NCBI GenBank assembly: GCA_951812325.1
Contig: OX638294.1
Coordinates: forward strand, 1,675,772 to 1,739,771
Source: an uncultured Thermoanaerobaculia bacterium
GTDB taxonomy: Bacteria > Acidobacteriota > Thermoanaerobaculia > Multivoradales > Multivoraceae
DNA length: 64,000 bases
Direction of reading: 5' to 3'
A program made the translations under genes and the position numbers. Below, in pieces: positions 47,903 through 48,055 of this stretch. The first letter of the stretch is position 1, and every line of letters begins with the position of its first letter. The notes beneath the pieces were generated by a model, which did not search any database, had not been told where the DNA came from, and saw only the letters and a list, made by a program, of their open reading frames with translations.

Positions 47903-48015
47903 TTGGGTGGCTGGCGACGGGCACAGCGACGTGCTGTGCACCTCCCACTCTGAAATCAAGAACTGCCGTAGTGACCCGTGGTCCAAGGTCAAGACGCATC
48001 GAGGAACGAAGGTGA
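47869..48015 (+). CDS. Possible 48-aa leader/mini ORF (MFVVQRMLCP...RSRRIEERR)
   Basis: Strong SD GAGGGAGGG before ATG 47869; no recognisable homology. Confidence 0.3.
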   Translation: MFVVQRMLCPMVGWLATGTATCCAPPTLKSRTAVVTRGPRSRRIEERR

Positions 48016-48055
48016 GACGCCGGTTTCGAATCCGGTCGGGGTCACTACGCAGTTC
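47960..48055 (+). ncRNA. tRNA-like structured RNA on an extended stem
   Basis: 17-bp closing stem with one bulge; D-arm GTCCAAGGTCAAGAC; T-arm GCCGG-TTTCGAAT-CCGGT; non-canonical anticodon loop; no CCA. Confidence 0.7.

Follow-up and report, generated by a model that had tools for sequence, protein, structure and literature searches.

A conserved, tRNA-derived element beside a predicted self-repression guide in type I-E CRISPR loci of Acidobacteriota

The DNA analysed here is a 64,000-nucleotide (nt) stretch of contig OX638294.1 from an uncultured Thermoanaerobaculia bacterium (hereafter the window), which holds a complete type I-E CRISPR locus and, in the 416-nt spacer region between its cas3 and cse1 genes, a tRNA-like cloverleaf on the + strand (47960..48055; hereafter the element). 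The upstream neighbour, cas3 (45171..47795, + strand), encodes 874 amino acids (aa) with Pfam matches to Cas3_HD, Cas3-like_C_2 and DEAD. Downstream, cse1 (48212..49795, + strand; assigned by Pfam) leads a run of cse2, cas7, cas5, cas6e, cas1 and cas2 that reaches position 54164, and a CRISPR array with a 61-nt period extends from about 54295 to 58900.

The element sits inside a predicted self-repression circuit. Promoter P1 (47811..47840, + strand; TTGACA, 18 nt, TAGAGT) lines up with the TTGACA promoters of related loci and is the only sigma-70-like site that a consensus scan returns from the spacer region (one found, 0.0 expected from shuffles); no terminator was found in this region of the window on either strand. 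Between P1 and the element lies a self-target (47868..47902, + strand), made up of the triplet AAT (47868-70), which resembles a protospacer-adjacent motif (PAM), and a 32-nt protospacer-like site (47871-47902). On the far side of the element is a mini-array, also on the + strand: a degenerate repeat, psiR1 (48110..48139; hairpin CTCCG/CGGAG, then 5'-handle-like ATAGACC+N), which matches the 3' end of the array repeat (family D2); a spacer that supplies the guide part (48140..48171); and a second degenerate repeat, psiR2 (48172..48200), with a hairpin CCCCGC/GCGGGG that is the same as in the array repeat and is kept in all relatives.

The target site (47871-47902) matches guide positions 1-5, 7-8, 10-11, 13-17 and 19-22, which gives a score of 18/20 when every sixth position is ignored, compared with 12 for the next-best site in the region. 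Each of the 12 loci with the element obeys one rule: mismatches are free to occur at positions 6, 12 and 18, pairing is partial, begins at the seed and weakens beyond about 17-22 nt, and guide and target co-vary from locus to locus; the PAM-like triplets across these loci are AAT, ATT, AGT, AGC or AAC. The comparative evidence for a working guide of the CreR/CreA type, as predicted from these sequences, is strong, and with it stands the placement given in an earlier, sequence-only reading of this DNA (the initial annotation), which had located the element between a Cascade-targeted site and a mini-array. The target abuts the -10 hexamer in relatives and lies about 30 nt downstream of it in the window, over a Shine-Dalgarno (SD) site and ATG. 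The window here carries about 30 bases more than the rest of its genus (47841-47870, including GGGAGGG and an AATAAT that resembles a second -10), which puts the predicted Cascade site inside the transcribed region. Consensus scans found neither a second + strand promoter nor a + strand terminator between element and cse1 in any of the eight loci scanned, suggesting that element, mini-array and cse1 probably belong to one transcript.

The cloverleaf at 47960-48055 is real, and each part listed in the initial annotation is present in the sequence. The 17-bp closing stem (47960-47977 with 48039-48055) consists of 11 perfect pairs (47967-47977/48039-48049), detected by an inverted-repeat finder, and six further pairs with one bulged C, and T47979-G47980 occupy tRNA positions 8-9. 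The D-like arm (47981..47995, + strand; GTCC 47981-84, AAGGTCA 47985-91, AGAC 47992-95) has a loop that is unchanged, save for one C/T, in alignment A4 of six genus sequences. It is followed by the anticodon-like arm (47997..48014, + strand), whose stem strands CATC (47997-48000) and GGTG (48011-14) enclose a purine-rich 10-nt loop, GAGGAACGAA (48001-10), that is not of the 7-nt type and lacks U33; by a variable region AGAC (48015-18, + strand); and by the T-like arm (48019..48036, + strand), in which a 5-bp stem (GCCGG 48019-23, CCGGT 48032-36) closes an 8-nt loop, TTTCGAAT (48024-31), equivalent to a canonical T-loop plus one U. There is no CCA. In RNAfold the cloverleaf is the minimum-energy structure of 47950-48065 (-41.8 kcal/mol, z -2.42), with 3 of 200 shuffles folding equally well, so that the fold energy taken alone provides modest evidence; the cloverleaf is retained when the entire leader is folded, and the whole-leader fold is itself unremarkable (z -1.33). 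As a separate observation, the 3' acceptor strand (48034-48048) is 80% complementary (12/15) to the 5' half of psiR2 (48170-48184), and this match, CGGGGTCGC/GCGACCCCG, is perfect over 9 nt in genus relatives; such pairing could exclude the cloverleaf and the psiR2 hairpin alike, or it could be a chance match between GC-rich stems.

Detectors of ordinary tRNAs do not recognize the element, as had been expected of a pseudo or undetermined tRNA: ARAGORN finds 0 tRNA genes and Rfam 0 matches at gathering score in the 64-kb window, and RF00005 has no match over 47700-48300 (601 bases, E<=10), where the only hit is an unrelated RsmY match of 9.9 bits. Five same-genus loci likewise receive no tRNA call from ARAGORN or Rfam. 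The departures from a tRNA are the 10-nt loop GAGGAACGAA, the 8-nt loop TTTCGAAT, the 17-bp closing stem and the missing free 3' end after a 7-bp acceptor.

Comparison gives stronger evidence than fold energy and argues for a selected RNA. BLAST finds the region from element through mini-array, at 71-75% identity, in seven of the genus's 42 genomes, counting that of the window. RNAalifold independently returned the same four helices from six same-genus sequences, and on the dot-bracket structure reported here 95.0% of paired cells in these sequences are filled by pairs, as compared with 30.5-42.6% when the 3' partners are slid. Four pairs have changed on both sides within the genus alignment, and none of 500 shuffles reaches the observed pairing or covariation score. 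A 12-sequence alignment that adds distant homologues gives 90.9% paired cells and 10 pairs changed on both sides, again reached by 0 of 500 shuffles, although this alignment was fitted to a covariance model and so leans towards structure; in it the 4-bp anticodon-like stem covaries, with pair 36-52 being AU in eight sequences, GC in three and GU in one. Mean column identity in the genus alignments is 88% for the element versus 66% for the whole cas3-cse1 spacer region, and the D-, T- and anticodon-like loops are almost invariant within the genus. A structure not conserved in related loci, which the initial annotation had named as a possible refutation, is thus contradicted by covariation and model matches.

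The same comparisons indicate which strand is under selection. The core helices contain G·U 12 times versus A·C once overall (8 versus 0 in the genus), and tRNA signatures score on the + strand only, so that the selected RNA has the sense of the cas genes. Together with covarying stems and nearly invariant genus loops, this strand bias places the + strand RNA under selection.

The ancestry of the element emerges from a set of 80 loci encoding relatives of the window's Cas7, the nearest of which are labelled Thermoanaerobaculia, 'Candidatus Multivorans', Acidobacteriota. Covariance model R1, built from the six genus sequences only, was run on the window, locus L018 and these 80 loci. In 14 of these 82 sources, which amount to 13 distinct loci, its match falls at one and the same place upstream of cse1. 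The window element, whose core (47968-48048) matches both R1 and covariance model R2, scores 87.8 bits with R1 (E 2.9e-18; the lowest R1 score of the genus) and 81.9 bits with R2. R1 also matches in six genus loci and, at 26.9-43.1 bits, in six distant loci (L025, L028, L031, L032, L035 and L037) labelled Vicinamibacterales, Terriglobia or Acidobacteria. ARAGORN calls a tRNA in all six distant elements, with anticodon UGC in four and AGC in two, and RF00005 scores four of the six at 48.1-59.7 bits against a gathering score of 29; in the other loci of the set ARAGORN finds no tRNA in the spacer regions. Detectability is therefore graded, with four loci seen by ARAGORN and Rfam, two by ARAGORN alone and seven genus loci by neither. 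Homology across the 12 sequences is plain in the acceptor stem, U8, the D-arm, the first four anticodon-stem pairs and the T-arm.

The distant elements are more tRNA-like than their counterparts in the genus. They have the acceptor GGCCCCG/CGGGGCC, U73, no CCA and a canonical 7-nt T-loop (TTCGAxx), and within the anticodon only wobble position 34 varies (U or A), G35, C36 and A37 being invariant. A G3·U70 pair defines alanine tRNA identity; the distant elements have C3-G70. In the genus, extra pairs seal the acceptor helix (3-5 in the relatives, 10 in the window). Since R1 homologues at the same spot are called tRNA, the window element is a degenerate descendant of a cas-linked tRNA gene; on this comparative basis it is homologous to bona fide tRNA-type genes, which upholds the earlier description of it as a non-decoding tRNA mimic. 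In the distant loci, conserved hairpins lie close on either side of the tRNA, with two covarying hairpins just downstream. A separate oddity is found at L018 1436-1520 (a stretch also present in L024), where about 28 nt of the element's 5' part, acceptor strand and D-arm, stand three times in tandem, either as a real triplication or as an assembly artefact.

The parent isoacceptor has several candidates. The best genuine tRNAs for R2 are tRNA-Glu in 15 of 18 loci (one of the 18, L104, comes from the unpublished genome G088), tRNA-Cys in two and a tRNA-Ala(CGC)-like gene in one; in the window's own genome the best R2 match to a tRNA falls on tRNA-Cys. A phage tRNA-Cys shares acceptor stem, U73 and D-arm with the distant clade, and pairwise identities do not separate Glu, Cys and Ala as candidates. 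On two viral contigs (L159 4372-7147 and L161 353-2883) there are arrays of 22 tRNA genes that are nearly identical and include a 71-nt tRNA-Ala(UGC) and a tRNA-Cys whose acceptor stem and D-arm match the distant cas-linked elements. An unrelated Acidobacteriota genome has an odd 71-nt tRNA-Ala(CGC)-like gene (L108 1505-1575, minus strand) behind a TTGACA/TATATT promoter; beyond the gene come tandem repeats with a unit of about 56 nt and then a masked stretch, and there is no cas linkage.

Several other identities were tried and rejected. The element is not a repeat or miniature inverted-repeat transposable element: the single full-length match in the 4.63-Mb, single-contig genome is the element itself, and the other eight matches are of 21 nt or less. 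Nor is it a copy of a host tRNA or an integration scar, one of the refutations named in the initial annotation: the element is single-copy, and the best of 55 host tRNAs called by ARAGORN shares 51 of 71 core positions, a value that is ordinary between unrelated tRNAs. Distant homologues are likewise single-copy in their own genomes (4 of 4 checked). A known RNA family was excluded, as the window element has no Rfam match at gathering score and RF00005 calls only four distant homologues, and a CsrA-binding hairpin (AAGGA loop) was dropped because the 98.6%-complete genome has no CsrA family match. The window does hold tandem repeats elsewhere (periods 64-135 nt, 2-4 copies, 86-97% matches) at 6647-6832, 17941-18131, 24858-25056, 31401-31760 and 63727-64000, the clearest being a 90-nt unit repeated four times at 31401-31760.

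The distribution of the element follows that of the long spacer region. This region measures 414-602 nt where the element is present (12 loci), -8 to 83 nt where there is no module at all (18 loci), and 100-430 nt where there is a mini-array, frequently accompanied by a small SD-led open frame. Of the genus's 42 genomes, 16 yield a Cas7 match, which is close (69% identity or more) in nine, and seven of these nine carry the element; of the same genus, G011 (locus L047) has promoter, target and mini-array with the element absent, and G028 (L020) has no spacer region. A quick Cas7 tree, from which L027, L043, L053, L054, L061 and L065 were left out for an early stop in their translations, along with the 19 of 80 loci that did not have both a cas3 and a cse1 anchor, places 12 element-bearing rows in one 23-row clade (Shimodaira-Hasegawa-like approximate likelihood ratio test support 96) together with nine spacer-less rows and two of intermediate spacer length. 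All 12 element rows have the mini-array, the nine spacer-less rows lack both, and the two intermediate rows lack the element; because spacer-less rows lie within the element clade, an old origin with repeated loss fits. Searched with R2, 151 Acidobacteriota genomes (the unpublished G088 and G113 among them) yield genuine tRNAs only, apart from the window, the best at 58.4 bits against the window's 81.9. None of 27 metagenome contigs with the mini-array pattern has the element, several of these matches lying too near a contig end to show one, and nine viral contigs with the acceptor/D-arm motif contain, by R2, two ordinary phage tRNA arrays and otherwise nothing.

Eleven of 12 relatives carry antisense-oriented features around the element (L019, L021-L023, L025, L027, L028, L031, L032, L035 and L037). 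An 11-13-bp GC hairpin lies 8-11 nt upstream of the element with an A-rich run before it, and it scores as a minus-strand intrinsic-terminator-like site in all seven loci scanned. A minus-strand -10-like motif, present in 11 of 11 relatives, lies between the element and psiR1 and reads TACAAT or TATAAT in six distant loci and TGnTA(C/G)GAT in five genus loci; a full minus-strand promoter was called in L037 only. As hairpin and motif bracket the element, an antisense transcript of about 160-190 nt over it is suggested. In the window the motif is degenerate and the hairpin missing, the acceptor helix being longer by seven pairs instead. None of the minus-strand open frames is conserved.

On the + strand, the window has an open frame at 47848..48015 (55 aa if read from GTG, 48 aa if read from ATG 47869, which follows GGGAGGG) that ends with a TGA (48013-15) inside the cloverleaf. 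It contains GGGAGGG-ATG and AGA/AGG codons, its start, frame and stop are not conserved in five same-genus loci, it has no Pfam match, and it is probably not a gene. A different kind of frame occupies the element's slot in 13 related type I-E loci from metagenome-assembled genomes of Spirochaetia, Latescibacterota and Gemmatimonadota, where SD-led frames of 72-92 codons (L038 1634-1909, L040 1620-1880, L043 from 1652, L046 1633-1899 and L049 1714-1944; also L052, L054, L055, L058, L059, L062, L064 and L065) cross both degenerate repeats and stop at or just inside the cse1 start. Within groups the N-terminal half is conserved, as in L040 and L043, whose differences are synonymous, and no Pfam family was found for these frames; such a frame may encode a small protein cargo or serve as a translated leader that is coupled to cse1.

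What the element does is best approached through its place in the circuit. We favour, tentatively and at somewhat below even probability, a cis-acting processing or stability module of an autorepressed leader, and we prefer it to an RNA effector gated by Cascade. The element is a tRNA-derived, non-decoding + strand RNA domain that would be transcribed from P1 within the 5' leader of the cascade operon, and P1 would be held down by Cascade carrying the mini-array's guide, which resembles a CRISPR RNA (crRNA), in a self-repression loop of the CreR/CreA type; with P1 so repressed and the guide adjacent, the element would be made in step with de-repression of the operon. Its ancestor was a canonical-looking tRNA gene long carried at the same spot by a type I-E clade of Acidobacteriota. 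In the window's genus, the anticodon loop then grew to 10 nt and the T-loop to 8 nt while the acceptor helix was sealed, selection keeping the tRNA body, namely the acceptor/T stack, the elbow of D- and T-loops and the anticodon stem. The folded body may serve in cis as a punctuation and stability module that RNA-processing enzymes recognize and excise. Where the acceptor end is free, the candidate cutters are RNase P and a 3' endonuclease; in the window a double-strand RNase might act on the coaxial helix of 17+5 bp. Excision would separate the 5' leader from the mini-array and cascade RNA, and both would gain defined, structured ends. Co-transcription from P1, processing and an effect on RNA fate are what we infer from the comparisons. 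RNase P and the tRNA-processing enzymes recognize acceptor, T and D elements, and these are the parts conserved across both clades, which lends support to the cis module, as do the close flanking hairpins of the six distant loci, expected for excision ends. The module also draws support from the homology to tRNA genes, from selection on the + strand RNA, from the co-varying guide and target, from the probable co-transcription and from an engineered precedent in which crRNAs are released by tRNA-like elements (PMC4946936). Other observations weigh against it. The promoter and mini-array loop runs without the element in L047, and the mini-array pattern occurs without it in the 27 metagenome loci, indicating that the element is not needed for guide maturation. 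The sealed acceptor helix of the genus is a poor substrate for RNase P and RNase Z, a pure processing signal leaves the near-invariant 10-nt anticodon-like loop without a role, and the minus-strand hairpin and -10-like motif point to an antisense transcript for which the cis model has no need.

The conserved loops and the antisense features fit an element that acts in trans, a reading that we regard as possible yet doubtful. It would be a CreT-like toxin or decoy, a tRNA-shaped cargo that accumulates when Cascade fails through mutation or an anti-CRISPR; at the same level of doubt, it might do harm by occupying the tRNA-handling machinery, with the antisense RNA as a second lock. The ancestral form, with its 7-nt loop, NGC anticodon, U73 and C3-G70 in place of G3·U70, could have been a mis-identity tRNA that mistranslates Ala codons. 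Natural families of mistranslating tRNAs exist, at least as described in the parts of PMC10404621 consulted. If GCN decoding matters, wobble-only variation of the anticodon, as seen in the six distant loci, is to be expected; in all 13 loci the element stands between the Cascade-repressed promoter and the mini-array, element and mini-array are mostly gained or lost together in the 23-row clade, loop sequences are conserved besides stems, and minus-strand hairpin and motif bracket exactly the element RNA. Against this, the lack of a + strand promoter or terminator separating the element from its own antitoxin-like guide and the cascade genes means that it is probably co-transcribed with its own repressor, which argues against a classical CreT. 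The window retains the element despite losing the hairpin and the integrity of the -10-like motif, the genus form can neither decode nor be charged (10-nt loop, sealed acceptor), L047 runs the same circuit without it, and the only type I-E modules in the literature covered are toxin-free and of the CreR type. We consider rather unlikely the fuller form of this reading, in which the effector is CRISPR-guarded, its promoter gated by Cascade and its RNA further covered by the antisense transcript. Just as unlikely in our estimate is the ancestral stage of that form, a mis-identity tRNA mistranslating the commonest codon family of a high-GC host upon loss or inhibition of Cascade, and we view with equal reserve its last stage, a genus form evolved into a non-decoding decoy that still engages tRNA-binding machinery.

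Three further explanations carry little weight. It is improbable that the element is a relic in decay, left by a tRNA gene that once entered the spacer region and is now functionless in the genus. Stepwise degeneration from the four loci seen by both detectors to the seven seen by neither would fit, as would the repeated loss of the whole spacer region and the window's lowest R1 score of its genus; decay is hard to reconcile with an element better conserved (88%) than its surroundings (66%), with invariant loops, four compensatory pair changes within the genus and G·U 8 versus A·C 0 in the genus core helices. Less probable still is a minus-strand product, the antisense small RNA of about 160-190 nt running from -10-like motif to hairpin, with the + strand cloverleaf incidental. 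The terminator-like hairpin in all seven loci scanned and the recurrent motifs speak for such an RNA, even though a full promoter was called in a single locus, while the G·U excess (12 versus 1) and the tRNA signatures favour the + strand, no conserved minus-strand frame exists, the hairpin is missing in the window, and no near-identical host tRNA that could be sponged was found in the four genomes checked or in the window's own. We likewise give very little credence to a leader peptide or CreT-type mini-ORF (open reading frame) as the active part, that is, the AGA/AGG-rich GGGAGGG-ATG frame at 47869-48015. It has a strong SD-like site 6 nt before ATG 47869 and overlaps the Cascade target, an SD-ATG frame in G034 ends at the same TGA, and SD-led small ORFs fill the same slot in sister clades; yet the start codon is absent in three of five genus relatives (G001, G014, G005 or its equivalent), frames across the element differ between loci, the TGA is replaced by CGA or CGG in three of six sequences, the rare codons are the conserved D-arm sequence itself, and there is no Pfam match.

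Cas operons that repress themselves through mini-array guides have recently become an active topic, to which the element adds in a way that depends on its role. As a processing or stability module it would be a natural counterpart of the tRNA scaffolds that engineers use for guide expression, and would show the fate of leader RNA to be tied to Cascade levels. As an effector it would add tRNA mimicry or deliberate mistranslation to the ways in which a CRISPR system punishes its own loss; were the guarded form true, type I-E would gain its first addiction or abortive-infection module, and CRISPR modules of this kind their first tRNA-mimic toxin. Across the 13 loci the element grades, at one fixed position in the genome, from a canonical tRNA to a mimic that escapes detection, a rare clean case of tRNA-gene exaptation. 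The predictions are directly testable, for which a 400-bp fragment suffices.

Among known systems, the closest to this circuit are the crRNA-like CreR mini-arrays between cas3 and cas8e of type I-E loci (bioRxiv 10.1101/2023.03.10.532045; PMC10120712). As far as the accessible parts of these papers describe them, they share with the window a spacer, set between two degenerate repeats, with a partial match to the cascade promoter region, a psiR1 that keeps the 5' handle and a psiR2 that keeps the hairpin, freedom to mismatch at every sixth position, and a location within a long cas3-cas8 spacer region. Unlike in those descriptions, in which no tRNA-like element is mentioned, a conserved cloverleaf here lies between target and mini-array, joined in relatives by an antisense-oriented terminator-like hairpin, and the mini-array is downstream of the promoter that it targets. 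In the literature searched on CRISPR self-repression modules, which did not extend to supplementary lists of loci and cargos, no tRNA or tRNA-like component was found, in agreement with the initial annotation, which knew of no type I-E module with this architecture. Mini-arrays that repress cas8e promoters are thus known, and for a conserved tRNA-derived RNA in the circuit, the new element, we found no description in the sources consulted.

Compared with an RF00005 tRNA, the element shares the cloverleaf, U8, the GG of the D-loop, a TTCGA-type T-loop and a 4-nt variable region, and the window's version differs in its 10-nt anticodon-like loop without U33, 8-nt T-loop, 17-bp acceptor helix and lack of CCA. 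CreTA modules pair a CreT RNA toxin with a CreA guide, CreT being a small, mRNA-like transcript that has a very strong ribosome-binding site and ties up a tRNA through its rare codons (PMC8501985; PMC12737573, both seen in part). As in CreTA, an RNA gene here stands behind a promoter predicted to be repressed by Cascade, beside a degenerate mini-CRISPR in the cas locus; unlike CreT as described there, the element is itself tRNA-shaped, has no conserved mini-ORF and, by consensus scan of eight loci, has no promoter or terminator apart from the operon's. Natural mistranslating tRNAs, such as a tRNAPro family with Ala anticodons (PMC10404621, in the portion available), resemble the six distant homologues in joining an Ala-box anticodon (UGC/AGC) to a body without G3·U70, whereas no dedicated synthetase gene is seen beside these homologues and the window element cannot decode. 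An engineered Haloferax system places tRNA-like elements on both flanks of a crRNA, where RNase P and tRNase Z cut them efficiently (PMC4946936, as far as its accessible text goes); like these t-elements, the element would place a tRNA-like fold on the transcript of a guide RNA, if co-transcribed as we infer. The t-elements are synthetic and their cuts define the guide ends, whereas the element described here is natural, lies 54 nt upstream of psiR1 and accompanies a guide that keeps its own repeat hairpins.

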